34,611 nucleotides of DNA from an uncultured Clostridium sp. (GCA_964550295.1 CAZJYV010000001.1:1-34611), one strand, 5' to 3'; positions 6,137 to 30,200 are shown, counted from the first letter of the stretch. Notes: generated by a model not told the origin, from the letters alone. Program-made: numbers and translations.

Positions 6137-6238
6137 ATGAAAAAACTTCTTGGCAGCCATGCGAAATTCACGATGGGGGCGCTGCTTGCGTTTTTGGTGG
6201 CGTTTGCGTTGATTTGGACGCCGTCCGCCGCGCTGGCC
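6137..6238 (+). other. Sec-type signal peptide of the giant protein (34 aa, predicted cleavage ALA|EE)
   Basis: MKKLLGSHAKFTMGALLAFLVAFALIWTPSAALA|EEST has a basic n-region, a hydrophobic core and an AxA site. Confidence 0.8.
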
Positions 6239-9200
6239 GAGGAGAGCACCGATACGACAGCCGACCCCGGAGCGAGCGACGTTGACACGTCAGGCGGCAC
6301 TGCGCCGGGAACCGCCACGGTGGGAAGCATCGTGGAGGAAGGCACGGAGCAAGTCGCGCAAGGAGAAGCGAAGATTTACGACAACGCACCGGTCGAGCAG
6401 ACGACGACCACCGGCGGCGAAACGACGACGACCGAGGTGGAGAAGTCCGCGCTGCAAAAAGCCGTTGAATACGCGCTTACCCAAATTCAGGCGGATACCG
6501 AGAGCATCACCATCACGCTGACCGAAGGCACATACACAGGGGATGTGGCAATCGACAAAACAAACCTCGGGGGCGTGGATACATCCAATTTCAAACTGTT
6601 CATCCTGGCAAGCGACGCCGTTGTTACGGACGACGGGGGCAACACCACCTACACGAACGCGAACGGTGCCACAAAAGTGAACGGCAACATCACCATCGAC
6701 GGGCTCGATGTTGTGCTTGCCGGTATTTACATGGCCGTAGATAAGGCGATCAACGCTAAAAATACGGATGTTTCCATTTTTGGCACAACGGCAGGGGACA
6801 CCTATACCGTTAACGTCGGCGGGCGCGAAGGCGAGGATGACGATCAAACCGAGGTCAGCGTCGCGGGCGGCGCGGGCGGCGATACCATCAGTGTCACCGC
6901 GCAGACGGGCAACGCGGACATCGATATCGATGGCGGAGACGGCGGGGATGTCATCTCCGTTGACGGTACCACCGCGCCGGACGCGCAGGGCACTTCCGTT
7001 GATGTCAGCGGCGGCGCGGGCAGCGACGTGATCAACATCGACACCTCCGTTGCGGGCGGCGCAAGCCTTGTTTCCGTCAACGGCGGTTCCGGGGATGATA
7101 AAGTTCATCTGACAGGCTATCTCGATGAGGACGATAAGGACCAGGACGGCGCAGACGCACCGCGCATCGGCGGCAGTGCGACGCGTATCGACCTGCGGAA
7201 TAAAAACAACAAGGCGCTCGGCCTTGCCTTCAGCGGCGTGGAGCTTTTTACGGACGCGCTTTACAACAAGGCGTGCGTCACAGTCGCGGCCATCGGCGCG
7301 GACGGCAGGCTTTATTCAGACGCGGAAAAAACCCAGCTGATTACGTTCTCTCCCTTCACCGATTATTCGTATGACGCGATCAGCGGCGAGACCATCACCG
7401 GCATCAGCGACACATCCTCCGGCGCATTCCTTGCGAGCTTCTGGATCACCTGCATCGAAACGGACTTCAACGGCATCAACAACGACATCACGCTGGGCAA
7501 CATCAACCTGCCCGGCATAACGCTTGTCGTCAGGGCGGGGAAAGTCACCGTCACGGGAATTGTAAACGCGCTATCCATCCGGATCTTCGCAACCGATTCG
7601 GACGATCTTTATAAAGAATATATCCTCAACCTTGACGAGCTGCCTTTGCCCGACGGACTTGCCAATTCCGCCGCGGGGCAATCGCTCGACGTGAACGGAA
7701 GCCTTCTGGATTTCGTCACCAACGCCTACATTAATATAAAGGAAGGGGCGCACCTCAATGCCAACGGCTCCGTTGAGCTGACTGCGACCAGCTCGCAGAC
7801 GCACGCGCTCATCGACCTGATCAATGGCATCACCAACGCGCTCAACTTCATCTGCGTCAAGGTCGGGTCGGCCAGCATCACGATCGACGGCACAGTGAGC
7901 GGCACCAATGTGAGCGCCACCGCCGCCACGAATGTCACGATGTCCGCGAGCAATTCCACGCTTGCCCCGTACTTTGTACCCCTCGCGGTGAGCGTTTGCG
8001 TGGCTGACGCGCGCGTGACCCTCTCCGACACGGGCAGCATCACGGCCACCGGCAACGTGAACCTTTCGAGCACGAGTACCATCCAGGTCACGACAGAAGC
8101 ATGCACAGGCAGCATCCCCTTTTCACTTGCGGTGTCCGTAGTCGTCAGCGATGCGCATACGAGCGTTGCGGGTGATATTACGGCAGGCGGCGATATCAAC
8201 CTCACAACTGCCGCCACTGAGGATGTGACCACGCAATCCCACCGCGGAAACGCTTCAACCGGCAGCAGCGGCGGCTACTTCGCCATCGCTGTGACCCTTC
8301 AGGATGCCGATGCTTCCGTAACAGGTACGTCCGCGCTCAGCGCGCTTGGCGGCATCAACGTAAAATCCACCGCCATCGAGAAGGTGCTTACCACCGCTAC
8401 CTCCGCCAAACCGGAGGAGCAGAACGGCGGAACCACGCTTGACAAGGTGATTGCCAAAGTGAAGGAACTGCTCTCTACCGTGGCCGGCAAGCTCGGCGGC
8501 GCAATCAAAAACAAGATCACCGGCGCAACCGGCAACATGACCGGCGCACAGTATACCATCGCTGCCTCATCCACCACCAACGGCACAGTGAGCGCACCGG
8601 TTTCCAAGGCGAACGCGGGCGATACCGTCAAGCTGACCCTCACCCCGGCCAAGAACTACGAGGTTGACCAGGCATACATCAAATACCTCGAGCCCGGCAA
8701 GAGCAGCTATACGACCGTCGGCCTTTCAAACGGCAGCTTCGTGATGCCGGCCTTCAATGTAACGATCGTCGTCACATTCAAAAAAACCGCCGGCACGCCT
8801 GCCGATGACGATACGAGTTCCCTCTACGGGGATGGCGACGCCACCAAGCCCGGCGATCTGTTCGACGATGAGGATGACGGCGGCGGCGACCTGGGCATCT
8901 CCGATCTGTTCGACGAAGGCGCGGGCGGCACACAGGGTACGTCCGGCGGCGCAAGCGAAAACTCCGCCGACGCCGGCGCAAAGACCGTCACCCTCACGCA
9001 GCCCGCAAACGGCGCGCTCCTGTGCGCTGTCACAAAAGTGGATGCAGGCAAACAGGTGGCTGTCACCGTCAATCCCGCCTCCGGATACAAACTGACCGAG
9101 AACTCCCTTACCTATACTTATAACGATCCCGACAACGCGGGCAAGAAGCTCACCAACGTCATCAGAGCCAACGCGAGCGGCGCATATCTGTTCACTATGC

Positions 9201-12200
9201 CCGATGCCGATGTGACCGTGACCTGCGCTTTCGAGGCGGGAACGGACACCACCACGAATAACAACACCCCTTCGGGCAATCAGCTCACCGGCGCGCTTGC
9301 GGTAGCGGTCGTTATCAACAATAACAAAGCCTTCATCGATACGACCGGCGCAGTCGGCGCGGCGGGACAGGTCAACGTGACAACCGTCGGCGTGACCCAG
9401 TCCACCGTCGGCGCGGACGGTTCCCCCGCGGCGAAGGAAATTACCGCCGATACCGCGGCGGGCGAATCGCTGCGCGACCCGCAATCCTCGACCACCTTCG
9501 GGCAGGAGAAGGGGCATCTCACCGTTAAGCCGACGGTCAACGGCTCCATCCAGCTTCTCTCCAACAACGATGTTCAAATCGGCGACACCGTCGCCTTCCT
9601 GGTTGTACCTGCCGAGGGCAGCAAACTCAAGGAAGGCTCCGTTCAATACGTCGTTACCTATAAAGATGATACCGGCACGCACACCGCGACGCTCACGCCC
9701 ACCAAGGACGGTTCCGTTGCGAACAAATACTATTTTGTGATCGAGCATCCCGCGGGCGGCGTACTTGACGCAGCCTGCACGTTTGTGCTTTCGGCCGAGT
9801 TCGAGGCTGATCCGCACGCGATCACCGTCAACATCACAGGCGGCGGCACCGCCACGGCCGGCGCAGCTTCCGCCAAGGCGGGGGATGAAATCACCCTCAC
9901 CCTCACCCCGAACGAAGGATGCGGCGTTAAGACCGTGAAGGTAAACGGCGTTGCCGTTACTGCTGCGGATGGTGTTTACAAATTTAAGATGACCGCGACG
10001 GACGCTGTTGTGGATGTGGTATTCGGTGACAAGGAATATGCCGTCGTTCTTCACGAGGATTCCGCGGCAGTTTCATCTTATATTAAAATATCCAACTCCA
10101 AGGCGGATATCGGGGACAGGATCGCCGTCACGCTGACAGATGAGGCAGTCGCCCTCGGCAAGAAGATCGCCTCCGTGAGCGTGGAGTTCTATAATTTCGG
10201 CGGTGCGCTCCAGGCGAGCATCCAGGTGACGGTTGACGCGGACAACACCTTTGTCATTCCCGACAGCGTGGACGGTTATGTCAGCAACGAGCTCGGCACG
10301 GCGACATTCAAGGTTAAGGTGACGCTTTCCGACAAAACATACGCACTCACAACCGAGGTTCTGCCCGCTTCCGGCACCGCGACGCCCGCGCCTTCCGGCA
10401 CGATCAGCGCGCCTGCCAAGGTCGACAGCCTCGAACAGATCTCCGTGACCATCACGCCCAACGCGGGCTGCAAGCTCGTTCCCGGTTCGGTGAAAGTCAT
10501 CACCACGAACGGCGTGCAGAATACGACGGTGACGATCGTCATCGATACCCTCACCTTCGACGGAACGAAGTATACCTTCACCTATAAGCTGCCGATTCTG
10601 AGCGCCGCAGGGACCGAGACCAGCACCGTCAAAATTCAGGCGCAGTTCCAGCGGGGCACGGAAACCACAACCAAGAAGGATACCGTCAGCCTCGGCGTGG
10701 GCATCGCCGTGGGCGTTACGCTCCATAAAAGCGAGGCATATGTTCAGAACGCGGACATCACCGCCTCCGGCCTGAATATTGCCGCCACCAGCGGCAGCAG
10801 GGATGAGCGCGTCATTTCCTCCGTCACCGCTAAGGCAGGCGTCGCGGCGGGCACAATCGGCATCGGCGGTGCTGTTGCGGTCAACGTCGCCTCCGCAAAG
10901 ACCCATGCGCTCCTTTACAACACAGCGACCGTTCGCCTTACGGGCGGCGGCACGATGTCGATGGAGGCATCCTCTTTCGAACGCTTCACCACCATAGGCG
11001 ATGCGGCGAACAACACGGGTTCCTCCACGAGCGTCGGCATCGGTGCCGGCATCGCGGTGGGCGTGTACGGCGTTGAAGTATACGGTGCGGTTGAGGATGC
11101 AACGGATATCGCGCAGGCGCAGGGCGCGGCGGATATCCAAAGCATCACCATCGGAGCGGAGCATGACCTTGCGGAATCCATGCTGGCCAAGGCCGGATCC
11201 GCCGGCGGAACCAGCATCACGCCCGTGCTTGCGGTGCTGATTTCCGGCGCGGATGTGCAGGCGTATCTGGGCAAAGCGCCCACAGGCGCAAACGGTACGC
11301 TGAGCGTCGCGTCCGACATCACCATCAAAGCGGCAAGCAGCATCAACCGCGAAATGGCGGCCAACGCCGCCGCGGCAGGTTCGTCCGTGGGATTCGGGGG
11401 CGCGTTTGCCATCAGCGTTTTGAATGATTCCGCTATCGCGCGCCTCTCCCGCAACGTTCATGTGAAAAACGGCAACATCAGCGTAATCGCGCGCAGCCGC
11501 AACAACTTAAAATCCACCTCCCGCGCGGGCGCGAACGGCGCGCCTGCATCCGGCGGTTCCACCGCGGCGGATGGGTCCGGCGATTCCTCCGCGGGAGGGT
11601 CGTCTTCCTCCGGCTCAACCGGCGACGGGTCAGGGTCATCCGACGCACAAGCGGATAAAGCCCTCACTTCCGGGGGCAAGCTCGCCAATCTGACGGGCAC
11701 GAACAACACAAGTTCAAACACGCTTGGCAAACAGAATTATAACAGACAGCCGTCGCAAACCAGCGAGGGCAGCGTCAGCATAGCCGCAGGCTTCGCGCTC
11801 AACATCATGCGCAACGACTGCCGCGCCTATCTGGATGACGGCATAACGGTCGAAGCGCACGGCACGGATGAAATCGATTCCTCCGGAAACACCGTGAGGA
11901 AGGGCGAAGTCAATGTACAAAGCTTCAGCCTGGTCGGCGCGCAGATCGCGGCCAACGCTTCCGCCACGAAGAGCAAGATCGGCGTGGGCGTGGCGGTTGC
12001 CATCAACATCGTAACCTATCAAAACAGCGCTTATGTCGGCAATAGCCTCGTGAACTGTAACTACATCAACGTAACCGCCCTCATGGAGGAAAAGGTCAAG
12101 ACCACCAAGGTTACGCCGACCGCCGCCGTGACGGATGCGAACATCCTCGTCACCCTCGTCAAAAACGCGATTTCCGGCTTCCTCACCGATTTGGAGGAGG

Positions 12201-15200
12201 AGCTTGGCCTCTCGCAGTACTTTGACGCAAACGGCGTGGATGAAAAATATACCCTTTCCGGCATCATAGAAACGATCATCAGCTCCGTGCTCGGCAAAGG
12301 TCTCAACGCGCTGCTGGCAGGAACCGGCCTTGAAAAACTCCTCAGCTCCGACATCGCCGAAAAGCTGCAGAGCGTCAAGGACAGCATTTTCAACATCTTC
12401 ACGAGCGACGAGGCGACGGCAGAGGCGCTGACCCGCCTGAAAACCATCGCGATTCAAGATCTGATCTCGCTTGTGGCGGGCATGGTCACGCAGATGGCGC
12501 AGCAGGGCAACGCGCAGCAACAGCAGGGCGCGGATGCGGATGCTGCAAAACAGCAGCAGAACAATCAGTCCGTTAAGGATAAGATCATCACCACAATCAA
12601 AGAGAAGATCACCTTCTCCAACCTTTCCGCGGCGGCGCAGGTAGAGGGCGCGAAGTTCCTCACAACCCTTGCGGATCAGCTTGTGGGCAGCTTCGGCGGC
12701 GATCTGATCGATGTGAACGCGCTGACCAACTACCTGAAAACCAACCTGTCCGCGCATCTGATGACAAGCCTCAAGAGCGCGCTTTCCACGGCCGGTGTGG
12801 CATTGACCACCGCCGCGCTCGATACGCTCACCTATTATATGGGTACCAAGCTCGAGGGCGATACCCGTCCGACCAATACCTTCAAAACGGAGGCAGTCGC
12901 GGGCGCAGGCGCGGGCAGCGTCGGCGTCGCGGGCAGCGTTGCGCTCTCGGTCATCACCGGCAGCACCAAAGCGTATATCGCGGATTACAACGCCGCGCTT
13001 GCTCCGTCCGCAGGCACGGGGATCATCGCCGCCAAGATGACGACGATCAAGGCATACGCCCTGCAGAATGAATACACCGTCGCCTCCGGCGCGGTGGGCG
13101 GCAAGGGTACTGCTGATGCAAACCTGGGCGCGGGTACGAGCACCACAAACGACACCGCGGCACAGAACAATACCACGAACGAAACCACCCCCGATCCGGA
13201 CGGCGGCGAGGGAGAAACGCCGACCGCGGGCGGCGAGCAGACCAACGGCAAGCTCCGCGTTGTGACGTCAACCGGCGGCACCGCGACCGCGTACGGCTAC
13301 CAGAGTAAGGACGACGGCCAATGTACGGTTGAAGTCACCTGCGATCCCGGCTATGTTGTGGATGAAATCACCGCAACCATCACTACAGGCGCGGGCGTCG
13401 CGCCGACGGTATGGGCCACCACTGCCAACCGCGAATACAAGTTTTCGATGGGTGGCCTCGTTTCCGGGAACGCGGGCGGCGACCTCGTGATCACCATCAA
13501 CGTCACCTTCAAAAAAACGCAAAGCGATCCGTACACGGTCACCGTGGGCGCAACGACCAACGGAACCGTCAAGGTTCACAGCGACACGAACGAAACGGAC
13601 GCCGCCTCAACCACAGCCAAGGAAAGCGAGAAGGTCTATGTCGTCATCAGCCCGAGCGCGGGCTATACGCTCGACACCCTGACCTATACGTATAAGGGAC
13701 AAACGAAGAAGATCGTCAGCCAGGAGTCTTCCGCGACGAAGACGACCTTCATCTTCCTCATGCCCAACGCGGACGCGACGGTGAACGCCACCTTCAAGGC
13801 GGTTGATCCGAACGCGCCGGTCAACACGCAGAACACGAACAGCAGCGGCAAGAGCGTAGGCGTCGGCGCGGCGTTCGCGCTGACCGTCAGCGTGTTTACA
13901 GTTGAAGCTTCCATCGGGGCAAACCGCACCGTCACATCCGGAGGCATCGAACTGGGCGCGGACGGTGAAAAGAAAAACACCACATCGAGCGTCGCCGGCA
14001 GCGATCCGCTCGCCAACGCGTCCGACGGCACGTCGAAGGATATTTCCCTCGACGCATCCGCCGCAGTCGCTATCCAGACAACTTCCATCACCGCCACCGT
14101 CAAGAGCGGCGCTGTGATCACGGCAAACGGCGGCAATACCGTCACCGTGACGGAAGCCGTCAAGGATGCCGAAGGAAACGTTACAGCCCCCGCTGTTTTG
14201 GCCGGGTTTTACATGCACGCCAAAGAGATTGCGACGACCATCGTCAAGGCAAGCAGCTTTGCAGTCGGCGCAGAAACCGCCGTGGGCGCAGCGGTTGCGG
14301 TCAACATCGCAATATCCGATGTGGCCGCGCGCTTCCTCGGTACGGGCGCTGTGAGCGGAAAGGCAAGGCTTGAGGCAACCTCTCTTTCAAAGGATGACAG
14401 CCACGCGCTCGCAACGGCTATGGGCGCGGATATGCAGCGCTATACCGACAAGTTTGCCAAGGGTCAGGAACAGGCGGAAAATTTCGCCAACAACATGAGC
14501 TCCGGCAAATATTTCGATAACACGGGCAGCACCGCCAACACGAACAACGGCACGGCGGGCAAGGTCAACAGCAGCCTCAACAACAATGCAAACAACGAGC
14601 AGGGCGGCTCTCAGCCGCAGGCGAGCAACGACCTGCCGCTTTCCACCAACGCGCTGCGCGCCCAAAACGCAAGCACGGAGGATCAGGCGCAGACGAATTC
14701 CACCACCACAACAGGCACGACGACTGCAAACAACAACACCGGTTCCACCACCAATCCGGACACGAATACAAGCAACCCCACGGGCGTCACCACAACGCAG
14801 ACCCAAACCAACAAGCAGAGTGTGCAGATTGCTGCGGCGGTTGCGGTCAACGTCACCGTACACGCGATTGAAGCCATGCTTGCGGGAGCCCTCACCGCTT
14901 CCGAATTTGAGATTGAAGCCGAAAACAACGGCAATTTCCGGACGATCGCCTCGGGCGCGGCGATGAGCCTTGCGCAGAACAGCAACGCTGTTGCGGCGGC
15001 GGTCGCCGTCAGCGTGAACCGCAACGAAGCGCTCGCCTCGATTGCGGACGGTTCAACCGTCACCATGACGCGCGATTCATCCGGCAGCGGTGCTGTTACG
15101 GTTGCGGCTACATTGACCGCCAACCTCAACGACGCATACCGGGGATACCTCGGCGCGCAGGCCATCGCGGGCGCGGTGAGCGGCAGCGGCGGCAAGGTTT

Positions 15201-18200
15201 CCTTCGGCGGCGCGCTGGCGGTGATCGTTTCCCGCGCAGTTACCTCCGCGACAATCGGCAAAAACGTGCATCTCTACAACGGCGGCAGCGTCGTGATTTC
15301 CGCAGTGGATAAAACCAAACTCGCGCTTCGCGCGGGCGGTGTGTCCGTGTCCAAGGGCGGCAGCGCGGTCGGCGTGGGCGCAAGCTTCGCCGTGATTTAC
15401 GCGCACAACGAAATTACGGCCGCCATCGGCGACAACAGCGATCTGCACGTCGGCAGCCTTAAGCTCATCGCAGAAAAACAGCGCCTTGACATGTCGGACT
15501 ATGAGAATGCGGCCGGCTTCGACAGGCTCCTTACCGATACCTCCAACCTTTCCGCCGCCGAGCGCGAGCAGGCCAATACCGGCATCATCAGCGTGTACCG
15601 CGAAAAGGATGCCGCCACCGGTAAACTGAGTGATTCCTACAAGGTCGAGGTCAACATCACGACCGAAAAAATCATCGGCGCGCTCGATCTGCTCAACTTC
15701 CTCTCCGCATGCAACTATTACGCGGAGGCGATTTCTGGCAGCATCGTCGCCGGCGCGGGGCAGGACGCGAAGGCATCCGTCGCAGGGTCGCTCGCGATGA
15801 TCTTCTTCTTCAACACGATCAATGCCCTCATCGGCAGCAGCGTGAACATCGTGTCCGAGGGCGATGTGGCGGTCGAAGCCTCCAACGACGCAACGGTGCG
15901 CATCATCGCAGGCTCCCTCACGGTATCTCCCGCCAAGGTCGGCGTGGGTGCGACTGTGGGCTTCATCCTCAATTCCGATACGGTAACCGCGCGCGTAGGC
16001 GAAAGTTCCGCGATCAGCGCGGGCGGCGCGTACAAGCAAGATGCTTCCGGCAAAGCAAACGTTCAGGTCTATACGATCGCGGCATCCATCAGCGCGGGTG
16101 CAAACGAAAGCACTGCGACCGTGGGCGGCACGGTGAACGCCATCGCCGCGAAAAACGCGGTGCTCAGCGAAATCGCTCAAGATGTCGTCGTCGACGCCGC
16201 AAGCGTTGCGGTCATCTCTTCCCTGGCGATGGAAATGATGCTCATCTCCCTCTCGATCTCCGCAGGCAACAGTAAGGTCGCCGTCGGCGGCACGGTTGCG
16301 GTGATCGTCGATCAGAGCAGCGCAAAAACCAAAATCGGAGAGGATGTTACGCTCATCGCCCAAACGGGCGCCGGGGTGTCCAACACGCTTGTCAGCGCGC
16401 TGGCTTCCGCTTCCGGCGCACCGCAGGGTGTAACGGTTGCGGGCGTTCTGAGCGTACTTGTCGCACTCTTTAAATCCAACGTAGAAATTGCGGACGGCGC
16501 ATATATTGAAGCGAAGCTGGGGAACGTCCGGGTCGCGAGCACGGCGAAGAGCTTCATGGTCATCGTCGGCCTTGCGGCGACGGGTTCCGCTGCGGGTTCT
16601 GCGGCTGTCGGCGCGACGATCAGCGTCAACGTGTTCCAGCACGAGTCCAAAGTGGCGATCGGCACGGTCGTCATGAAGGCCGGCGGCGACATTACGGTAT
16701 TCGCCACAGGTGAGGATCTTACGATCCTCGTGAACATGGCACTTGCCGCCGCGGGTTCCGGCAGCGCCATCGCAGGCACGCTTCCCGTGGTTGTGAGCGA
16801 TACGGAAATCGAAGCCTCCATCGGGGACAATTCCAAAATCAGCGCGATGGGCAGCATCGCCGTCGCGGCGGATCTTACGAGCAAAACGATCGATGTCGCG
16901 GGCGGTCTAGCCGCAGGCGGCGGCAGCGCGGGCGTGGGCGCAACCCTCTCCACCGCGGTCTATATGAGCAAAATCACGGCGCGCGTGGGCAGCGGCGTTA
17001 CGATCTACGCAGGTGCGGCGGGCCTCGGCGTGCTTACTCCGAACCGCAGCGAAAAACGGCGCGGCATTCTCGTGAGCGCAACCGGCAACGAACTGCTTAT
17101 CCTCGTTGCAATTTCAGCAGGCGCGGCGGGTACGGCCGGCGTCGCAGGCGTAATCAACACGCTGGTCGCTAAAAACGATGTTTCGGCTACGGTCGGCAGC
17201 GGCAGCAGCCTCTTTGCAGGCTACCGCGAAGGCGAAACCGAAGGCGCCCCGGTTGCTACGGGCCATGAAGGACAAATCACCGTTGAGGCGGATGACGAAA
17301 CTGCGATAGCCAACTGCGCGGGCGCGCTTGGCGCGGGCGGAACCGCCGGCGTCGGTGCGACGGTCGTGGTGCTCGTGTTCTGCAAGACCGTCACTGCGGA
17401 TCTTTCCTCCGCGGCGATCGTGCGCGCGAGCGGAAACGTCAATGTCACGGCAAACGCAAAGGATGATCTCTGGCTGCTTGCCCTCGCCTTTGGCGCGGCA
17501 GGTACGGCGGGCGTTGCGGGCGGCGTGAACGCGCTGGTGTTCACAAACAAGGTCAACGCTCTGCTCGGCGGCACCATCGACGCGGGCGGGGATGTTGCCA
17601 TCAAGGCTTCGTCGGACAGCGGATTGTACAATGTGGCGGCAGGGCTCGCCTTCGGCGGAACGGCCGGGGTTACTGCGGTTGCGGTCGTCACCTATTTCTA
17701 TAATGAAACGATTGCCCGCATCACGGACAACACCCACCTCCAGGCAGGCGGCGCGGTGAGCGTACGCGCGGAGTCGGATGAATTTGTCACGGCGGATGCC
17801 GCAGGCGTGAGCGGCGGCGGAACGGCGGGTGTGGGCGGCACGCTCGATATCATCATCACCAAGGTCGTCACCAAGGCATATACCGGCAGCAACGTGCGTG
17901 TCACATGCGGCGGCGCGCTGAGCGTGACGGCCATCGACACATACAGCCTGATCGCAGCGGTCGTGACCGTTGCGGTTTCCGGCACGGCGGCGGTCGGTGT
18001 TACGGTGCTTGTGAGCCTTTCCTTCAACACCATCAATGCCGAAATCGGCCTGAACAACATCATCACGGCGGGTTCCGTCACAGTACAGGCTTCCTCCAAC
18101 CGCGATATCCTCACCGTCGTCGCTACGGCGGCAGGGTCCGGCGTCGCGGGCGTGGGCGTCAGTTTGAGCGTGGTGGTCGCCGGCAGCAAGATCAGCCAGG

Positions 18201-21200
18201 ATGCGCACGACGGCATCTATGCGGGCGGCTCCTCCATGGATCCGCAGGCGCAGACGGACGGTGCGTTCTCCGCGGGTAACGCCGCAGCGCTCGAGGGGCA
18301 GAAGCCCGGGGATGACCTTGGCGACATGCTCGAGGGCGACGGCCAAAACGTCGGCAACGAAGATTACAATTCCTACGGACAGGATACGTCCGGGCAGTAT
18401 TATGTGCGGCCCGGTTCCGGCGAAGATACAACCGCTTCCGGCGTCCTGCGCGGAACGGACGGCTTCTATTATCGTCCCGAGCGCAGCGAAGACGAGCTGA
18501 CTAAGCGCTACACCTTCACGAAGGACGGCGCGGGCGGCAACGTGTTTACCAAAGCAGTGTTCTACGTGGTCAGCGGCGCGGATGCCGAGGGCAACCCCGT
18601 CTATGAGCAGCTCAACGAGGATGCGGCTTCCTCCATCAGCGGCGACCTTTACGCAAGGAAGATGGTCGACGGCGCATACGAATACCATAAGGTCGATAAG
18701 AACACCCGCAGCGAAGGCAGTGACGCGGGTATGAACGATGAAACATACGATCAAACCGCCGAGGGCATGCAGTACGCGGGCGGTAAGATCACGGGGCTGA
18801 CGGATACGACCTCCGCCGTGATCAACGGCGGCTCTAGCGTCCTGACGACGGCGGGCAACATCGATGTACTCGCCAACGACACCATCAACGCGAACATGAT
18901 CGCCGGCACCATTGCAATCGGCATCGGCGGCGCGGGCGTGGGCGTCGGCCTGTCCGTTGCGGTGCTGATGAGCAACGTCAACGCCATCGTGGCGGATGAC
19001 GCGACGCTGTCCGCTCAAGGGAACATCAACATCATCGCCTCCTCCGGTTCGCTGGCAAAACCCATCGAGCAGCTGACTTCCGGCAGCAACGGCGCGGACG
19101 GCAGCCCCAACGCGGTGGGTACGCAGGGCGCAAACGACATGGCCAAGGATCAGACCGGCAACGACGGCACCGCCGCGACCATTCGGCTGATCTCGGTCAC
19201 GGGCGCGGGCGGCTTCGTGGGCGTGGGCGTCAGCGCGGCGGTCCTGATGGTTTTCTCCAATGTGCAGGCGAAGCTCCTGGGCGATGTGACGAGGGCGGAT
19301 GCCGTCACCGTTTCCGGCAAAATGAACTTTGGCGAGGTGCTCACCGTCACCATCGGCGTCGCAGGCGGCGCGGTTGCGGTCAACGTATCCGCGGGCGTCG
19401 CATACTTTGGCGGCACGATTGAAACCGCCATCGGCGGCAACGCGAAGATCGGCGGCGTGAGCGGAACGATCAAGGTCGAAACAACGGGTGTTGCCAACAC
19501 GATTTCCGCCGCTGCGGGCATCGCGGGCGGTGCGGTTGCGGTCAACGCGGGCATCGCGCTCGCCATCAGCCGCACGAAGATCCACACATACGTTGGGCGC
19601 GGCGTTACCGTGAACATTCCGGGCAGCGTGGAAGTTTACACCGGCTTTACCTCCAACTGCACGGCCATGATTTTAAGCATCGCGGGCGGTGCGGTTGCAG
19701 TCGGCGCAACGGCGGCAATCGCCATCAACAACACGCAGGCATATACCTATATCGGCATCACGCCCTCGGGAGACGTGGCGCAAGGCTCCTCCCTCACGGG
19801 CGGCAAGGTGACAGCATCCGGCGTTCAAGTCGCATCAACCCTCGCAGGCAACACCTATGTGGCCGGCGTGGGCATCGCGGGCGGCGCGGTCGCCGTGAAC
19901 GCAACGGTGGCGCTCGGCTTCAACCGGGTGAAGAACATCACGGCCATCAACGGCGCAGGAATTGAAACAGCGGGAAATATCGAGCTTTCGGGCGGACTTT
20001 CCGGCAACACGACGGTCGTAACAACCTCCATCGCGGGCGGCGCGGTCGCGGTGGGCGCAACGGTTGCCCTCGCGCAGATTAAAAGCGAGAACCGCGTCTT
20101 CATCGATAGCACGGGCGTTACCGTCAAGGCGGCAAACATCGCCGTCAAGGCGGGCGACATCGGCGCGATCAACGCCTCCGAAGCAAGCGTTGCCATCGTT
20201 GCCGGAACCGCCGGCGCAATCGCTGTGGCGCTCAACTTTGCAATCGCGCTTAACCAGGCGAAAAACAGCGCCGAGATCATCGGCACACGCGGCAGCGAAG
20301 CTTCCGGCGTTTACAACCTCGACGCGTCCGGTCTTATAGAGATCGGCGCCAAGGGCGAGGCGCACGCATTTGCCATCGCGGCAAACGCCAGCGCAGGACT
20401 TGTGGCGGCAAGCGCCTCCTTCGCGCTCGCCATCATCCAAAGCACCCAGCAGGCCTTGCTGACCGGCACGTCAAAGATCAGGGCGGCGCGGCTTTCCGTC
20501 TGGAGCATCCACAATACGGAAACCTTCGTTCCCAAGGTGTTCAGCCTCTTTAGCGGTTATGACAGAAACAGCAGCGGCGAATATATCGACGAAAACGGCA
20601 GCGTCATTCAGGAGAGCGACGCGGACTTTGAACAAAAACGCGTTGAAAAAAGCACAAGCTTCACGGCGACGGGTGCTGCCACAGCGCTCATCATCAGTGC
20701 AGCCGCCGGGTATTATACGATCACCGCCAACAGCGTCATCGCCGTTGCGGACGCGACGAGTCGCGCGAAGGTCAGCGTTTCCGACCTGACCGTTACGGGC
20801 GCGGGCGGCGCAAGCGTCGCCAATACGGCGGATTCTTCCGCCATCGCCAAAACCCTCAACCTTTCCTTCGGCGGCTTCAGCGTGGGCGTGATGACGGGCG
20901 TCGCATATGCTTCCGGCACGTTTGAGGCGATTTTTGAGAGCAACGGCACGGTTGAACTCGCCTCCGCGCCTCTTACGGTCACCAACCTCTACGCATCCTC
21001 CGCGATCACAGAAATCCTCACGGCCAGCGCGGGTATTTTGCTCAATGTTGGCATCAACACGGCCAACGCCGTTGCCAACTCCATCGCCAACACAGGCCTT
21101 TCCGGCACGGGCAGCATCCGGGCGGGAGCGATTGAGATCCGCGCGGACGGCACCGCCACGGCAAGCGCCGGGGTGAGCGCGCCTGCCTTGCTCAAGAATG

Positions 21201-24200
21201 TGCCTTCGTTCAGCACGATCAGCGTTGCGGCAAACAGCGCGTTCGCCCAAGTGAGCGCTGTGCAGAACACCTATGTTCATAAGGTTACGATCGACGCCGT
21301 CTCCCTGTTGGCGCACAGCATCTTCAACTATACGGTGGATGATATAACGCCCGCCAACAGCGGCATGAAAGCCGACACCGGCGCCATCGCGAACGTCGGC
21401 GGCAGCGGCAAGGGCCCGGGCGGCGTTTCCGTCAGGCTCATCGGCGTGGAACTGAACCTCGCCAATGCCGTGATGGAAGCGAAAAACGAGCTGATCCTCT
21501 CCGGATCGAACATCACGCTCACGGGCGACTTGAGCGTTAGAAACGACAGCGGCGCAAACGCCACGGCGGGCGTATACCAGAGCGCAGACGCGGGCTTCGT
21601 CGGCATCGGCCTCGTGCAGGTCTCGGCGAACACTGCGGGCAGCTTCATCGCGTGCGTCAACATTGCCGCAGGCAAGAGGGTTAAGGCACGCACCATCACC
21701 GTTCAAACCACCTATCGCTCCGTCGCCACCGCTAAGAGCGCGCAGGCGACCAACGGCGTGAGCGCGAACGTGCTTGCCGTAAACAGCAACATCGCAACAT
21801 CCGTCGTCGGCTCGCAGGCGGAAGCTTCCGTCACGGGCGGCGGCGAAGTGGAAACGGAGGATGACCTATCCGTTCAAGCGTTCGGTACCGCCAAGGCGTG
21901 GAGCGGCTTTGAGCCGCTTGCGGTCGCCATCAGCGGCGGCGCAGCGGCAATCAACTGCCTGTATGCGACGCTTTCCGGCACGCAAAAGGCACTCGTCAAC
22001 GGCGTAAAGGTCAAAGTCGGCCAAGACATGACGGTTCTCTCCACGTTCAACGTGGGTGTTGAGGACGGCGCGTTTGCTGTGCTTTCCGGCGGCATGCAGG
22101 GCGGCGGGTCCGGCATAGACAACATCAAAGTACAGGTGGGCGCCCTCACGGTGGCGGGCAGCGTCGCCGTCGCAACCTCCGACTTCACGGTGCAGGCGCT
22201 CCTTGAAAACGCGGATGTTCAGGTCACAGGCGACCTGCTCGTAAAGGTTGACGCAACTTCCGTGGCAACTGCGAAGCTTGCGGACGATACGCTCAAGATA
22301 AACGGGCTTGCCGTGGGTCTGAACTTCATGTTCGCCTGGGCAAAGGGTGCTTACGAAGCCAACATCATCACCGCGTCTGGCAAAACAATTGAGGCGGGCA
22401 CGATTTCCGTCAGCACGATCTATACGACAAGCGCGCTCGCCCAAACAGGCCAGCTATCCGGCGGCATGGGCGACTTGCTGAGCGCGAATCTCTCCTATAT
22501 CAGCGTCAACGCGAACCTCGGGGCTGCCCTGAGCGCGACGACGGCGAAAGCCGCCGTCACAGGGAATGGCACGGTTAAAACGACCGCGAACCCGGTAACG
22601 GGTGCCGCGCTCGACGTCACGGCGACGGGCCTTGCGGATGCGAAGGCCGAAAATCTCGCAGCTACCATCAACCTGAGCTATATCAAGGTTGGCCTCGTTG
22701 TGATGAGCGCCGATGTCACCGTGCAGCAAAGCGCATTCGTGAGCGCGGGAACCGTTTCCTGCGCATCCGCGCGGGTCGTTTCCTCCCTCAACGAAGGGTG
22801 GACTGACAAGGGTGCAAACGCTTATATCGGCAGCGCCCTCAACGCCGACAAGAGCGGGTTTGACAGTTTGAACCTGAGCGTATACGGCGGCAGCGTCAAC
22901 ACGGCAACGGCAACGTTCGGCGGCAGCAACACCGCCTATATCGCAAACGCCTCGATCGGGTCGGCGGCCGCGCGCGCGACAAGCGTCATCGTAAAGACCG
23001 TCGGCACAGCCATCGCCCTCGCGGATATCGCGCAGGGCAACACGATCGGTCTGGCCAACATCGGCGCGAACGTGCTTTACGCCTACGCGAACGGCACCTA
23101 TACCGCCAAGGTTGAAAACAGCGTGATTTACGCCAAAACCCTCACCGTGGAAACCGATTATACCGCAGGCGCGACCGCCAGCACCACGCAGGGTGCGTTC
23201 GGCCTTAAGGGTGTCGCGCTCGACGCGAACGTCGCTTGGGCCGAAACGACTACGGCAGGTTACGCCTATATTTCCGGCGGCAGCGTCGACATCGATTCCT
23301 CCGGCAAGCTCACCGTAAAGGTCACGAGCAACGCAACGGCGGTTTCCAACTTTGCCACGCCCACGATATCGCTCAGCGGCATCAGCCTTGCGTTCAACCT
23401 GCTGACCGCCAAGCTCAACGGAACGGCGCAGGCCTATGTTTCAGGCAGTTCCGTCAAGGCAGCGGGTGGGGCGGACGTGCTGGTCTTCTACAACAATGAT
23501 GCGACAAAACCCGGCGCCGCCGTCTATATGAACAGCTACGGCAGCCTTGCAAGCTGCAGCCTCATCAGCGGAGGCGGCCATGTTCTGAACGCGACGGATA
23601 CCTCTTCCGCGTCCGCATATGTGAGCAACGCGTCGTTCGCACAAGGAACGGGCGCGGTTACGATCGACACACGCGGCAACAGCTACGCCGTGGTCGATAA
23701 GGGCGGAAGTTATGTGAACTTTAACATCGTTGCCCTCGGCGTGCTGGTTGCAAGCGCCACGGCGGACGGCAGATTCAGCGCGTACCTGGCATTACAGAAC
23801 GGCAACCAGGTGCATGCGTCTTCCCTGTATGTCGGCGCGACGTATAGCATCCGCGCCAAAGCCATCGCCGGACAGCCGAGCCTTGGCACGAACATCAGCC
23901 TGATCGATATTGACTACAACCAGGCTGTCGCCAAAGCGGGCGACGACAAGAGCACAGCCCTCAACGGAGATGCGCACATCACCGCCGCAGGCACAACGCT
24001 GATCGATGTTGCAGGCGACGTCCAAATCCTGCTTGACGGCAAGATTGAAGCGATTGCGCGCATCGATGCGGCAAGCATCAACATCAGCGGCGTGGATGTG
24101 GGCGTGAACGTTGTCGACGCATATGCATATGCGAAGCAAAAAACCTATATCAGCGGCGTGCGCTCCTTCCTCACGGGCGGCAACCTGACCGTTGATGCAA

Positions 24201-27200
24201 CGCTCAACCCATACAATTCCGGCAGCCATATGGCGTATGCCGTGACGGGTGCAGCCTACGGCGTAGATATTGCCTTCATAAGCGGCGGGGCAAACAGCGT
24301 CAACGCCTCCGCCGGGACGACAAATGAATCTTACATTCATGCAAGCGGAATCACATCCACGGGCAACCTAGGCGTAACCGCAACGACGGTTGCGGCGGCT
24401 AAGGCGGAAGCGCTTGATGCATCCCTCCTGAGCCTGAGCGGAATCAAGCTTGCCGCGACAAAGGTGACCTCCGGCTGCGCGGATACCACAAAGGCATATA
24501 TCTACGGAAGCGGAACTGCCATTGCAGCCTACGACGTGCTCGTTCAGGCTACTTCAAACGCGGGCGTGCAAAGCAACGTCATGCCCCCGCAGGTATCGGT
24601 CAGCCTCGTCGGCGGCACGAGCGTAAACGGAACGGCGGATGTTTCAAACGAAGTGACTCGCGCCTATATCGATACGGGCGTTACGGTCCGGGCAAACAAC
24701 TGCCTGAGCGTGGACGCAGCGCAGAGCGTGTGGGCGAAGGTCGTGTGCGCGTATGCGCAGAGCTACTCCGCCATTCAGCTCGGCGGCTACTCGCTGACTG
24801 CCAAGGTAACCAAAGCGGAAGCGCTTGCATATATCAACGGCACGGCGGAAGCGCAGGACTCTGTGACGCTGAGCGCATCAAGCGGCGTGACTGAACTGAG
24901 CGTATCCTACGAAGCACTCGCGGCTTCTCTCTTCAGCGGCAGCGCAAACTCCGCGGCGGAGGCGAAGGTACTCGACCAGACGGCTTACGCCAACGTCGGC
25001 GCAGGCGCGAAGATCGCAGCGCGCATGGGCGATATCACCATCTCCTCGCGTACGGCTTCCAACGTCAGCTCGTCGATCAGCAGCACAAATTACGCCGGTT
25101 TGACCACGGGCGGCCAAATCAGCGCCTATTCCTACGTGAAACGCGACACGCGCGTGAGCATCGGTGACGGCGCGCTGGTTGAATCCCGCTACGGCAGCGT
25201 TTACATCGAAGCGCTCGCCGATTATGCCACGGTAAGCTCTCGGTCGCGGGATGACAACGGTTCCCTCCTGAGCATCGGTTCCGGCCCTGTCGCAACCTCA
25301 AACATCAACAGCACGGTTTATGTCATCGTCGGCGCGGCAACCATCAAGGCGATTTTCGGCGACCTGACGATCATTGCCGATGCTTACAGCAGGATCAGCG
25401 CGCTCGCGTACCGCAACATGAAGGCCTTTGCGGGCGACAATACGAGCAGCGCTTCCATCGCGGCAACGGAAACGGTCAAGGTGCTGCTGGGCGCGGATCT
25501 GGCGGGCGTCAACACGACAAACAAAGCCTATATCAACGCGCTCAACACGCTTGTGCGCGCGTACATCACGGATCAAACGCTCTATTCCTACGCATACTCC
25601 TATACCATCGCCGCCGGATCGAAGACGGAGTCCTTCTCCGTCCTGTCCGCTTATGACGATATCGATGTGCTCATCGGCAACGCGTATGTCGGCGGAATCG
25701 ACTCGCTTTCAATCGAGGCCAAGCACATCAAGCTTGACGCGCACGCCGAAAGCTATTCGATCATCAACGCGGGCGTTACCGGCAAGGTGTACGCCACATC
25801 CACCATCAACGGCTATTCAAATGTGGATGTCAATGTCAGAAGCAGCGCCGAGCTTGCGGGCGAAAAGGTGAACCTCGCCGCCTATGCGCCGACGTTTGAT
25901 AATGGTACGGTCTTTAAGGATGCGACCGCCGTCGCCAACACGGTCATCAGCTGGATCACCCGTACCATCCAGAAGGTTTCCCAGTGGATCGAGAAAAAGG
26001 TATCCAAGATTCCGTTCATCGGATGGCTCATTAAAAAGATCGTCCATAAGATCGTTGAGTGGATCACCGAGATCATCAAAATCATCACCTACTCCGACTC
26101 CGAAAGCTTCACGACCGGCTCACTCGATTCGCAGGGCGACCTCGTTGCAGGCGTGTATATCGCCTCCGGCGCAAAGGTGCACCTCGGCGGCGCGGCTGCG
26201 GGCATGCAGATCGACGTTCTCCAGGACGGCACCGTCATGGCCGCCGGACTGGATAATGACTACGACGGCAACCTGAGCGCGTTCTATACGATTCAAGGCG
26301 AAAAAATGCTGTTCGGGCCGATTTACAACAATGACGCGGGCACGCTCACCATCACCGTGCACAATGGCAGCCTGAACACGGCGAGCGCGTTTACCGCTTA
26401 CGGAAACGCCTATCTTGCGAACATTGTCATCAACAATGACTCTAATCTCGATCTGGTGTTCGATGTGTTCCGGGTTGCGAACCCCGCGGCGATTGCGCCG
26501 GATGTGCAGTCCAGCGCGAACAACAATTACCAGCCCGTTCTGGTCTATGCGGACGAAATCCCGGTCATCACCATCAACTCCGCGGGCGGCGGCGACGTCG
26601 TGTTTACAAAAACCGTTGAAAACGTGCGCGGTTCTATGACAATCGCCATGACGGGCGGCACCCCCGGCGACATATATGCCATCCACGATGAGCAGGGCAG
26701 CGCGATCCGCGTGAATCGGTTCACCGCGTACGGCGCACACAACATCGGCAAGTCTCCGACGGACAAGCTGATCGTCGAGTTCTATAACGCAAGCGCCAAA
26801 CCCGCTCAGTATGGGTCAGACGGCAGAATGGTGCGCATGGGAGAAACCGCGCGTACCTCGCTGATGGATGTTGAAGCGGGCGGCACAATCTATATCTCGA
26901 TCTGCCTCGTAGTGGATATCGGCGAAATCGACCTGACGGGAACGACCATTTCCGCGTATGTCGCCGCATTGAACCTGCCTACACCCAAGCTGACCGTCGA
27001 AAAGATACGCGCCGGCGGACAGGTCTATATCGAGCAAAAACAGACGCGCATCCGCTATACCGATGTTTCGTTGATCGCGAGCGCGGATGTGGATACGATC
27101 AGCTACCCCAACGGCTCGATGAGCTTCGTGGCGAACTTCCCGGCCGTTGCACCGGGCGCGTCCGCGAGTCTGATGCAGTTGGAAGGCACAAATTACTGGT

Positions 27201-30200
27201 ATTCGCCCGCTACGGGACTGATCAGCATCGACGCGCAGAATTTCGCATTCTATGCCGGCACCCTCGGTACAGCCCATGTGAGCAGCGACTATACGACCTA
27301 TCAGCTGCCCAACAGCGTGACGGTCACCATCCTCAACGCCACGGGCAAAATCGTGAGCGTATCGCGCCTGAGCAGTTCGGGCGGGGCGGATGAGGTTTAC
27401 CAGCTCAGCGACTTTACCATCACCTACGATGTGAACGGCAATCTCGTGCTGACTCTCCCCTCCACCGCAGAGAATGAAACGGGCACATCCGTCACCATCG
27501 ACCGGGAAACCGGCGAGGCAACCATGAAGATCGCCTCCAACGGCGCGGCGATTTACCTGCGCCGCTCGGCGGGCAGCCTCGGCTGGGAACTGCCAAACGG
27601 CATCCTGATTTACTTCAAATCGGCGTTCGTGCAGAACGGCAAAATCGTGGATGTGACGTGGATCGGCAAGAACGGAACGAACGATCTGTATGTGCTTGAG
27701 GATCTCAGTGACACGGCAAGGAACACCTTCCATGTTGTCGAGATGGCGTCCGGCGGCACGGGCAGCGCGTTCGTGGCAGGCTATCTTTACACCAGAACGC
27801 AGCTTACCGACCTGATCAACGGCACTGCGATCAGCTACTATAACAACATTGACGAGGCAATCGAGGCGATTGAATCGGCCGTTTCCGGCATCAATCTGAA
27901 TTCCCTCGGCCTGTCGTTCGACAAACAGTATGTGCTGGATGAGGATAACAAACCGACCACCGAAATCGACATCGCGGCAACATACGGTTCTTTGGGGAGC
28001 GAAAACGCCGATGCGCTCACCGCGATACTTACGGCATTGCTCACGGGCATCACGGCGGAGCTGACGAACAACCTTACCATCATGCTCGACGGATTTGAAC
28101 TGAGCATCCGTGTTTCCACCAACGGCGCCAACTTTGCCGTAACAAAGCTGAGCGTTGGTTACAGCGTCAGTGATGCGAACCTGCCCGAAGGCACGGCAGC
28201 CACGCTCGGCACGGCGATTAAGAACGGCTCCGGAAACGGAACGCTGTACAGCTACACCAACGATTACGCCGTTGGCGACGAACTTGAAGGGCAGGGCGCC
28301 GACACGGCGATCACCGATTACGGATACACGCACACGGCCACAGAGGGCACGCTCGAAAGCATCAACGTGATCCGTTCCTACAAAACCGTTTCCGGTGAAG
28401 AAACCGTCGTCTATACGCTGCGCACCGCAAGAAAGAGCGGCGAGCTGACGTTTGTGAGCAGCAAGGAAAACAAGGATGCCGGCGGAAACGTCGTGAGCGT
28501 CACCTCATACTACTCCTGTGCGCTTGCCGGGTTTGAGGGCATCGTGTTTGCCATCAACGTCAACATCGCAAGTCCCGACAGCAGCACGCTTCGTGCGTTC
28601 CGGTTGGCGCAGGGCGCGTCGGGCGAAACGACCGCCACGGCGGACAGCGGCGGCATTTACACGATCACCGGCATGAACGGCGGCTATGTGGTCGTCAACG
28701 GCAACTACCGCTTCATCGACGATGCGTCCGACATCGCGGATCCTACCGCCATCCTTTACCTGACGCAGGACGCCGTGGCTGTTTATCCGGACGGAAAAAT
28801 CGGCTTGGTCGCAGTTGAAGGCGGCACGGTCGAGGTGGATCCGGATACGGGCGAGCGCAAATACATCGCGGCGAAGATCGCCATCGCGCCCACGCTGACA
28901 CAGAAAAAGGACGCTGACGGAAAATTCGTCTACTCGTCCATCCAGTATTATTATAACAAGAGCAATGTAGCCCAAAGGATGACGTACGCGCAGTACCTTG
29001 CGTGGGTTGCCGCGGATTCTGCAGCACAAACCGCTTACCAGGCCGCCATGGACGCGCGCGCCGCCGAGCTGGATGCAGCCGTCGCCGCGGAAAAAGCTAG
29101 GTATGAACAGATGGGACTCTTCCTGTCGAGCTGGGATGAGGCGATCTTCCGCTCTTCCTACAACGATTATACGACGCAGCTGCCTGACGCAGTCACCTAT
29201 CAGGTACCTTCGTGGTTCCGCAGCGGCAATTACGCCATCGAGTATGATGCCGTGAACGGCCTGCCTGTTTACAGCGTGTATAAAGATTCCCCTGACAGCG
29301 AGCTTGACTATTATAAGGTCGACTACTACGGCTCGTTTGAACAAATACTGGCGCTCGCTCGGCTTTCGGGCAGCGGATACACACTTAATTCGCATTTGAC
29401 CCAAGCGCAATACGATGCGCTGCCCTATACCTTAAAATCCCTGTTTACGCCCGTCTATAAGAGCGTGTACAACTACATCGACGGCACGGTGATCATCTCG
29501 CCCGATGTGGATAGTCTCGGCGCGTATGTCACCTATGTGTCCGGCGCGAACGTACCCGCGTTCGACATTCCGATGGACGAGTTTGGGCGCGGCATCCTCG
29601 ATAAGGAAACCCGTATTGTAGCGGTGAAGGATCAGACGACGGGCAAATATACGAACCTGAACCTGATCTTCCTTGGTGCGGATGGCGATGTGGCGGCGGT
29701 CTACGACGGCACGGGTCTGCGCTTCAACGAAGGCGTGAGCGCATACGATGCAGCGACGACCGTGTGGTCCGCGTACGCGCCCGCCCTGGTCAACGGGGAG
29801 AATAACCTGCTCGTTTCCTATGACAAGGGCATGATGGTGAAGTTCCTCGAGGTGATGTCCGGCGTGTATACGACGATCGACAGCATCATCACCGATAAGG
29901 ACACCCTTAGGTGGGATTATGCAAACGCCCTGTACTTCACAGACGGCACCGACGGGCCGATGCTCCTTGAAAAGAGCGACACCTATTACGCGTACGACCT
30001 CATCGACAATATGTTTAACCGGCTTGCCGCCAAACCGACGGAAGGCGTCGAGGGAACCGATTATTTCAGGGCCGTGACGCTGACCAGCCCCGCAAACGGT
30101 CTGATCAAACTTTCCATCATGGTCGACGTGGCTTTGCCGCAGAGAACGCGCGCCTTTGAACCCGCACGCACGTTCTTCGTGCTGGCGGACGGCGATACGC

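Follow-up and report, generated by a model that had tools for sequence, protein, structure and literature searches.

What kind of gene product accounts for the roughly 15 kb of repetitive sequence at positions 10676-25890 of a 34,611-nt stretch of DNA from an uncultured Clostridium sp. (GCA_964550295.1, CAZJYV010000001.1:1-34611; the whole stretch is referred to as the window), and how does a repeat of the type found in the Fusobacterium necrophorum leukotoxin LktA come to stand there? The original prediction, made by a model from the sequence alone, had described this interval as an LktA-like repeat lying behind a Sec-type signal peptide and in front of an LPXTG-class anchor. In our analysis the interval is part of one open reading frame (ORF) for a protein of about 1 MDa, which we propose, at a probability of about 0.72, to be a giant Sec-exported, C-terminally anchored surface fibre with a shaft of LktA-type coils in a spore-forming, Clostridia-type monoderm.

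The giant reading frame and its LktA-type units

On the + strand, the frame 6068-34609 runs without a stop codon up to the last full codon of the window, which ends two bases later. The single giant ORF within it (6137-34609, + strand) starts with an ATG at 6137, has AAAGGA just 5' of this ATG, and encodes at least 9,491 aa (~962 kDa), with a composition rich in Ala, Gly, Thr and Val. The interval 10676-25890 corresponds to aa 1514-6585 of this giant protein; it is not a gene but an inner part of the stop-free + frame.

For detection of the repeat, a hidden Markov model (HMM) of the unit was seeded on two units, iterated within the protein, and then extended over 31 homologues and 73 orthologous ORFs. 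The resulting profile has 54 positions, with the consensus VGVGAAVAVAVANNTVEAYIGDGATITAGGDVTVTADSDSNATAVAGAAAAGGS; positions 2-10 read G2-x-G4-(A/G)5-(A/S)6-V7-A8-V9-N10 and are followed by T16-x-A18-Y19-I20, so that the predicted core motif GxG(A/G)(A/S)VAVN ... (T)AY(I/V) is recovered at unit positions 2-10 and 16-20. At a domain E-value below 0.01, 62 units were found in the whole protein, 57 of them inside 10676-25890, compared to 0 in five composition-preserving shuffles. Successive units are spaced at 51-71 aa with a mode of 54 aa, and the autocorrelation peaks at a lag of 54-55, both in aa 3200-4010 (z 6.7) and in aa 6000-6600 (z 4.5). The interval does carry a degenerate tandem repeat, as had been proposed, and the repeat extends beyond its upstream end: the first unit lies at aa 513 (nt 7673), ~3 kb before 10676, another at aa 1048, and detectable units continue as far as aa 6424 (nt 25408).

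The detected units cover ~55% of the residues of the interval, the remainder being inserts or units too diverged to score. Gaps of ~110-250 aa probably hold units of the latter kind, and from the gap sizes we estimate a total of roughly 70-75; the ~80 units calculated before are too high for what is detectable. No tandem repeat was reported at the DNA level by Tandem Repeats Finder, which indicates that the array is old, with periodicity at the protein level only, and makes an assembly artefact unlikely. A second repeat HMM, seeded on four diverged units, was overfitted, recovered its seeds only, and was discarded.

Kinship with LktA was assessed by profile scans. In a scan of the protein in ten segments, NF012206 (LktA_tand_53; curated cut-off 50 bits) was the sole NCBIfam family matched, with 51.2 bits (E 1e-13) on the 950-aa segment aa 3801-4750; on aa 1514-6424 it scored 49.3 bits (E 4e-13, 11 stretches). 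Membership in LktA_tand_53 is supported, with scores at the border of the cut-off (49.3-51.2 bits against 50), the positive control P0023 reaching 331.8 bits. This control, a Thauera protein named 'leukotoxin LktA family filamentous adhesin' by NCBI, matches aa 3000-4010 at E 7.5e-29, and together with the NF012206 match at the cut-off this homology supports the predicted LktA-type identity of the repeat. Searched against 1.84 billion cluster representatives, a five-unit profile (A1) retrieved 4,258 protein clusters at E<=1e-3, of which 1,123 remain at E<=1e-30, and reached proteins with a two-partner secretion (TPS) domain at E down to 1e-293. Alignment of monoderm units with TPS-context units by hhalign gave a probability of 97%, and proteins from monoderm, TPS and 'LEPR' contexts have the 54-aa period in common, with almost the same consensus. 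Among the best 146 repeat proteins, 25 were flagged as TPS- or ESPR-type by simple N-terminal patterns, and 5 carry a transmembrane (TM) segment and a basic tail at the C-terminal end, in one case together with SPQTG.

As a separate observation, 32 of these best 146 proteins start with LE(P/S)RxLL(S/A) after a basic N-terminus (P0054, P0062, P0069, P0075 and others). Judging by the sequences, this start would represent a third export context, with neither a TPS domain nor a monoderm-type anchor.

The name 'leukotoxin LktA family filamentous adhesin' is carried by a different model, NF012204 (adhes_FxxPxG; 153 aa, FxxPxG variant). It matches the N-termini of all four TPS-context repeat proteins used as controls at 152-167 bits, and three of the four also match Pfam TPS. 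The N-terminal 500 aa of the window protein, scanned alone, gave no match in Pfam (E<=10) or NCBIfam (E<=1), NF012204 included, and the two-partner secretion domains Pfam TPS (PF05860) and ESPR were not found in the window protein, in agreement with the original statement that no TPS-type N-terminal domain is present. Negatives from long repetitive segments were not relied on because of false negatives with long queries: a whole-protein hmmscan of the 4-5-kaa proteins P0084 and P0076 returned no Pfam match, and the first 420 aa of P0076 alone matched TPS at E 1e-16. As the repeat is matched and NF012204 is not, the window protein appears to carry the LktA repeat while standing outside the LktA family as NCBI defines it. 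A TpsB-like gene was absent from the 6 kb upstream, ShlB/POTRA was absent from the 25 most frequent Pfam families in the flanks of the 73 related loci, and the 10 kb downstream of the relative P0004, which hold ABC-transporter genes, a FeoB gene and others, contained no TpsB or sortase gene.

Predicted fold of the repeat

AlphaFold2 was run on aa 3737-4004 (five units; 17345-18148) with an alignment of 28 in-register windows. The resulting model has a predicted local distance difference test (pLDDT) value of 95.4 and a predicted template modelling (pTM) score of 0.88, with strands of 19-20, 4 and 20 residues per unit. For the diverged units at aa 6103-6434 (24443-25438), the same long-short-long strands were predicted with a pLDDT of 78.6 and a pTM of 0.79. 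Foldseek searches against the PDB and BFVD gave no neighbour at E<=0.001, the best E being 0.05 with a template modelling (TM) score of 0.07, and TM scores being at most 0.24. The weak neighbours are all parallel beta-solenoids, with curli CsgA first; the others include FapC, SufD, tapirin, ice-binding proteins, the EtpA and FHA secretion domains and a serine-rich repeat protein (SRRP).

To derive contacts between units, 3,084 pairs of neighbouring units (effective number 2,874), taken from 251 proteins, were subjected to mean-field direct-coupling analysis. Among the 80 strongest couplings, 37 join the same position in successive units (i to i+54), 11 join successive units at offsets 1-4, and 22 join strand A and strand B in the register i+j ~52-54, whether inside one unit or between strand B and strand A of the unit that follows. 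All 22 strand A-B couplings are even-even and none is odd-odd. An antiparallel hairpin meander, our first reading of the DSSP string, was set aside on account of the in-register couplings between units and the absence of odd-odd A-B couplings. The even positions would face inward, which fits the residues found there: Gly, Ala and Ser close to the GG turn and, at the wide end, V16, I20, I26, V32 and V34. We infer that each unit forms one 54-residue coil of a flattened, wedge-shaped, three-sided beta-solenoid. The beta-solenoid that the original prediction had considered is thus favoured by the AlphaFold2 strand pattern, by the covariation and by the kind of Foldseek neighbours. The geometry suggested here also agrees with that of the LktA-like repeats of Cag_665, which were modelled as a 'laminated beta-sheet' (10.64898/2026.03.19.712371).

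Export, anchoring and competing explanations

Two features of the giant ORF bear on export and anchoring, both recognized by inspection:

6137-6238, + strand: Sec-type signal peptide MKKLLGSHAKFTMGALLAFLVAFALIWTPSAALA with a basic n-region, a hydrophobic core and A-L-A, EE following the cleavage site
34517-34609, + strand: sorting signal IPQTG-GAWLPIAWLLLAAGLVMFAAA-RGRRK, aa 9461-9491, with a hydrophobic stretch of ~21 aa

The N-terminus shows the n, h and c regions and the AxA site of a signal peptide, and orthologues have the same start. The C-terminus has the three-part layout of a sortase sorting signal, with a pentapeptide, a hydrophobic stretch and a basic tail; it aligns with VPTTG...ARKRRIRKA of P0004 and of homologues on four other contigs (L081-L084), and P0173 carries SPQTG. 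A motif of the form [IVS]P[QT]TG is therefore found directly before the hydrophobic segment in three independent relatives, namely the window protein, P0004 with L081-84, and P0173. Signal peptide and LPXTG-class anchor had been described as flanking the repeats. They do belong to the same ORF, but the former lies 4.5 kb before the interval and the latter 8.6 kb past its end, and the anchor is of LPXTG class in so far as a PxTG-type layout is present, IPQTG being missed by the LPXTG profile models. From this layout, linkage of the giant protein to peptidoglycan by a sortase is likely.

In the model that we propose, the ~962-kDa precursor would cross the membrane via Sec, using the N-terminal signal peptide. 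Each 54-aa unit would then fold into one coil of the flattened three-sided beta-solenoid, with sides of ~20, 4 and 20 residues and an interior packed by even-numbered, mostly small residues, and the coils would stack in register into a ribbon, for which 62-75 coils correspond to ~30-36 nm at an assumed rise of ~4.8 Å, broken by immunoglobulin (Ig)-like and other inserts. IPQTG, the hydrophobic segment and the basic tail would hold the protein at the membrane, a sortase would probably link it to peptidoglycan, and the N-terminal domain with its RTX-like motifs would be the distal tip. The overall architecture suggests a surface-fibre or adhesin function, the likely role being that of a long adhesin or spacer fibre by which the cell attaches to particles, to host material or to partner cells. 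The conserved membrane protein with tetratricopeptide repeats (TPR) that is encoded upstream may aid export or folding.

Several results weigh against this reading. The stop codon of the giant ORF and the genes downstream of it lie outside the 34,611-nt window. The NF012206 scores are at, not above, the curated cut-off, the units being diverged relative to canonical LktA units. The solenoid geometry is drawn from DSSP strings, covariation and non-significant Foldseek neighbours, and i to i+54 couplings can be inflated by repeat duplication; as adjacent units are barely more alike than random pairs (27.8% versus 22.6% identity), this signal is not simply one of recent duplication. With regard to the anchor, IPQTG is non-canonical compared to LPXTG, the Pfam scan returned no anchor model, Gram_pos_anchor included, at E<=10, and the top NCBIfam anchor was LPXTG_double at E 0.042 and 13.8 bits versus a cut-off of 48. 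Two orthologues of which both ends are visible (L068 and L069; 5,417-5,536 aa) end in a TM segment and KRRKEEDEQ without PxTG, and no sortase gene was seen in the 34.6-kb window. Some family members may be membrane-anchored only, with anchoring differing within the family. For the window protein itself we consider it unlikely that the C-terminal TM helix alone holds it, with no covalent sortase link, as a giant membrane-tethered surface protein, the manner in which Ebh of S. aureus has been described. The LPXTG models without a match, the TM segment and basic tail kept without PxTG in L068 and L069, and the missing sortase gene beside relatives, as in the 10 kb downstream of P0004, would all suit such a protein; the recurrence of [IVS]P[QT]TG directly before the hydrophobic segment in three independent relatives argues against it. 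Moreover, sortases of Clostridia are known to use (S/P)PxTG-type motifs as substrates, and sortase genes are usually unlinked to the genes of their substrates.

The kinship with LktA raises the question of toxicity. A released membrane-active toxin like the F. necrophorum leukotoxin would have a ribbon with a partly hydrophobic outer stripe, formed by Val at odd positions 1-11 and 45, which inserts into or disrupts target membranes after proteolysis, and for which the C-terminal anchor is a transient tether only. Such a toxin would be in keeping with a repeat common to LktA-family proteins, with Val on the outward (odd) face in the first half of strand A, with the amphipathic stretch after the array and with the hydrophobic clefts in the models of Cag_663 and Cag_665 (10.64898/2026.03.19.712371). 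We nevertheless hold it to be quite improbable in view of the conserved C-terminal sorting signal and the wall-proximal stalk-like module, of the Ig-like inserts, which are typical of surface fibres, and of the carriers, which are commensal or digester anaerobes. The repeat region is not known to be the cause of LktA toxicity, which likewise speaks against a toxin. Finally, the NF012206 score of only 49-51 bits over ~5,000 aa, in a sequence rich in Ala, Gly, Thr and Val, could mean that the likeness to LktA is compositional, as between Gly/Ala/Val-rich beta repeats, or convergent, and not homologous. This is very hard to reconcile with the absence of matches in composition-preserving shuffles (0), with the same 54-aa period and near-identical consensus across monoderm, TPS-context and 'LEPR'-context proteins, and with a window-derived profile that reaches bona fide TPS-domain proteins at E down to 1e-293. 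The preferred reading thus remains that of an anchored surface fibre with a homologous LktA-type shaft.

Protein layout, neighbouring genes and related loci

Between signal peptide and sorting signal, and immediately upstream of the giant ORF, the following features were assigned:

4695-6074, + strand: TPR-repeat protein with an N-terminal TM segment (Pfam TPR_1, TPR_2, TPR_9 and others)
6866-7108, + strand: four RTX-like GGxGxDxUx motifs, spaced 22-26 aa, in the N-terminal domain (regular-expression match)
7673-8407, + strand: first four LktA-type units, aa 513-757 (unit HMM)
9818-10027, + strand: Ig-like domain Flg_new_2, InlB B-repeat type (Pfam PF18998, E 3.9e-12, one of 2 stretches in a 950-aa segment)
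10685-12106, + strand: seven LktA-type units, aa 1517-1990 (unit HMM)
12107-12919, + strand: non-repeat insert of ~270 aa (no unit match; aligns with P0005 and P0007)
13532-13804, + strand: Ig-like domain Flg_new_2 between units (Pfam PF18998, E 2.6e-5)
13856-15475, + strand: seven units in two blocks, aa 2574-2764 and aa 2896-3113, with an Asn/Thr-rich low-complexity stretch between them (unit HMM)
15476-15772, + strand: conserved insert with DLLNFLSACNYYAEAISG, signature of the orthologous monoderm family (invariant alignment columns)
15773-18148, + strand: cleanest array, 15 consecutive units, aa 3213-4004 (unit HMM)
18149-18763, + strand: acidic, Tyr-rich insert of 205 aa (no unit match; conserved in P0001 and P0004)
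18764-25408, + strand: at least 28 further, increasingly diverged units, aa 4210-6424, with one 118-aa insert (unit HMM)
25409-34516, + strand: wall-side part of ~3,000 aa without LktA-type units, with unannotated domains and GxIG...P(L/F) repeats
25964-26161, + strand: amphipathic hydrophobic stretch VISWITRTIQKVSQWIEKKVSKIPFIGWLIKKIVHKIVEWITEIIKII, ~185 aa past the last detected unit (by inspection)

The RTX-like region, covered by the scan of the N-terminal 500 aa, had no Pfam or NCBIfam match; its motifs may form a Ca2+-binding, beta-roll-like tip. One of the Flg_new_2 matches lies inside the interval, the others upstream of 10676. Both the ~270-aa insert at 12107-12919 and the VISWITRTIQKVSQWIEKKVSKIPFIGWLIKKIVHKIVEWITEIIKII stretch look helical from their sequences. 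The wall-side part 25409-34516 had no significant match in Pfam, NCBIfam or the PDB, and sequence searches of the PDB found nothing below E 0.1 for the repeat, for the first 1,513 aa or for the C-terminal 2,906 aa. The C-terminal module is homologous to that of P0004 at E 1e-34, and likewise to that of L081-84.

Within the wall-proximal 900 aa (31787-34516), a second repeat type of the form a-G-d-I-G-t...P-l/f was observed at aa 8587, 8812 and 9293, together with a possible coiled coil, an Ala/Gln/Glu-rich stretch of ~200 aa (32819-33421); P0004 shares both features with the window protein. On the minus strand, 8729-21865 contains many long ORFs that overlap the giant gene, the longest of 823 aa (17114-19585), and we take these for shadow frames arising from a GC-rich coding region with many Ala, Gly and Val codons.

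The TPR gene is separated from the giant gene by a 62-nt gap on the same strand, with no + strand terminator-like site between them. TPR families dominate the flanks of related loci (20 of 64 ORFs), and a TPR gene occupies the same upstream position in 19 of these loci, including L012, L016, L032, L033, L038, L040, L059-L061 and L070. From its charge distribution only, the TPR protein is expected to have an N-in/C-out topology. The two genes may form a conserved pair, with the TPR protein as a candidate dedicated helper. Extending this, the 54-aa LktA-type unit could be a widespread, unsolved class of single-chain fibre coil (strands across the fibre axis; 4,258 clusters) used in at least three export routes, namely TPS in diderms, the 'LEPRxLLS' N-terminus, and Sec with PxTG in monoderms, of which the monoderm branch would rely on a dedicated TPR protein, membrane-anchored and extracytoplasmic, as a holdase or assembly factor for the ~1-MDa substrate and as a functional replacement for TpsB; we offer this as a tentative idea and regard it as rather doubtful. 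Other genes upstream encode a GNAT acetyltransferase, a phosphomannomutase, a DnaJ-domain protein, a DUF5685 protein and a small zinc-ribbon-like protein, judged from its CxxC motifs. An Rfam scan of the window returned nothing.

Among known systems, F. necrophorum LktA and the NCBI LktA family share with the window protein the 53-54-aa tandem repeat, matched by NF012206, and a near-identical unit consensus. In contrast to them, the window protein lacks an NF012204, TPS or ESPR domain and has no TpsB partner in view, carries a plain Sec signal peptide and a C-terminal PxTG-type anchor, and adds Ig-like inserts and a non-LktA C-terminal third; it is about three times as long as LktA. The type 5b proteins FhaB, HMW1 and EtpA, which form right-handed beta-helices, resemble the predicted shaft as long extracellular beta-solenoids of tandem coils, and fibres of this type were listed by Foldseek at non-significant scores (TM score at most 0.2). 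Their coils have ~19-20 residues, whereas those predicted here are far longer at 54 residues, and they depend on a TPS domain and on a TpsB in the outer membrane, of which the former is not present and the latter not seen for the window protein. The highest-ranking Foldseek neighbours were CsgA of curli and FapC, at non-significant scores (8c50_A and 9u4u_A, with 8c50_A again in a second search). Their coils are strand-arc-strand units stacked in register, which is the arrangement that covariation suggests for the window repeat. CsgA and FapC are, however, small subunits that polymerize non-covalently, whereas the window coils belong to one covalent chain, have strands of ~20 residues and show no sequence relationship to either protein.

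A giant protein with LktA-like tandem repeats is also present in the Chlorochromatium aggregatum epibiont as Cag_665; it differs in coming from a diderm green sulfur bacterium and in having no sortase signal, and its authors propose a route like that of a type 1 secretion system (T1SS) for export (10.64898/2026.03.19.712371). Ebh, SRRPs with their beta-solenoid binding regions, and Bap-type or fibrillar adhesins are comparable to the window protein in that they depend on Sec for export, are anchored at the C-terminus, and have Ig-like domains and a tip borne on a stalk, and the L. reuteri SRRP was among the weak Foldseek neighbours of the window repeat. What separates the window protein from these Gram-positive giants is its LktA-type stalk repeat, unreported for such proteins in the searched literature.

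Patterns derived from the conserved insert (…NFLS.NYYAEAI…; 15476-15772) retrieved 73 loci from species-representative genomes, all of them from Bacillota or Coriobacteriia: 13 from Christensenellales, 12 from Oscillospiraceae, 8 from Lachnospiraceae, 6 from Coriobacteriia, 2 from Erysipelotrichaceae or Solobacterium, 2 from Clostridiaceae and 1 from Anaerovorax, with the remaining 29 assigned only as Clostridia, Clostridiales, Eubacteriales, Firmicutes, Bacillota or 'bacterium'. The closest relatives are from a Christensenellales bin (72% identity) and 'Firmicutes ADurb.Bin248' (71%); cultured carriers among the Lachnospiraceae are Blautia sp. Marseille-P3087, Blautia sp. HCP28S3_G10 and Faecalicatena contorta ET52. 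The orthologous ORFs exceed 6,000-7,300 aa and, where the start is visible, most begin with a Sec-type signal peptide. Two further contigs, L078 and L079, share the identical GNAT gene of the window and also carry, in the region that lies upstream of the window, genes for Spo0A, YabP, YabQ, DivIC, BioY and an RNA methyltransferase; the presence of Spo0A, YabP, YabQ and DivIC identifies the source as an endospore-forming member of the Bacillota. Homologue searches came back empty for aa 5400-6400 and for the last 941 aa, probably owing to saturation of the candidate list by low-complexity words; a metagenome scan with the C-terminal 392 aa also returned nothing, and one with the P0004-window C-terminal alignment retrieved the P0004 species only.

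Full-text literature searches yielded no account of LktA-type repeats in Gram-positive or sortase contexts, the sole other mention outside Fusobacterium in the searched literature being the Chlorochromatium preprint (10.64898/2026.03.19.712371). The combination, first put forward as unusual, is therefore unusual in the searched literature but common in genomes, with 73 loci: rather than a singular oddity, it is an overlooked family with a wide distribution, frequent in genomes from the gut and from digesters. LktA-type repeats are accordingly not tied to two-partner secretion, but also form the core of ~1-MDa proteins in Clostridia and Coriobacteriia of the gut, rumen and digesters, which are largely annotated as hypothetical and for which no describing paper was found in the searched literature. 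This suggests that the LktA repeat region is a structural shaft and not by itself the toxic principle. The fold of the repeat is confidently predicted and has no solved counterpart, which makes short fragments attractive for structural work, and the cultured carriers in Blautia and Faecalicatena make export, wall anchoring, binding and the need for the TPR protein testable. The unsolved fold, the ~1-MDa size, the conserved TPR neighbour and the cultured carriers all raise the interest of this locus.

Several genomes contain two family loci each: OY762278.1 (L019, L028), CAZIQO01 (L008, L015), CAXXPJ01 (L034, L065) and JAFYBB01 (L036, L066). In one JGI sample, a P0004 homologue (L077, 5280-10559) starts 126 nt after a serine-recombinase gene, which itself follows RepA_N and IstB; on the four other contigs L081-L084, the same gene encodes at least 4,176 aa, which suggests that the L077 copy was shortened by an insertion.

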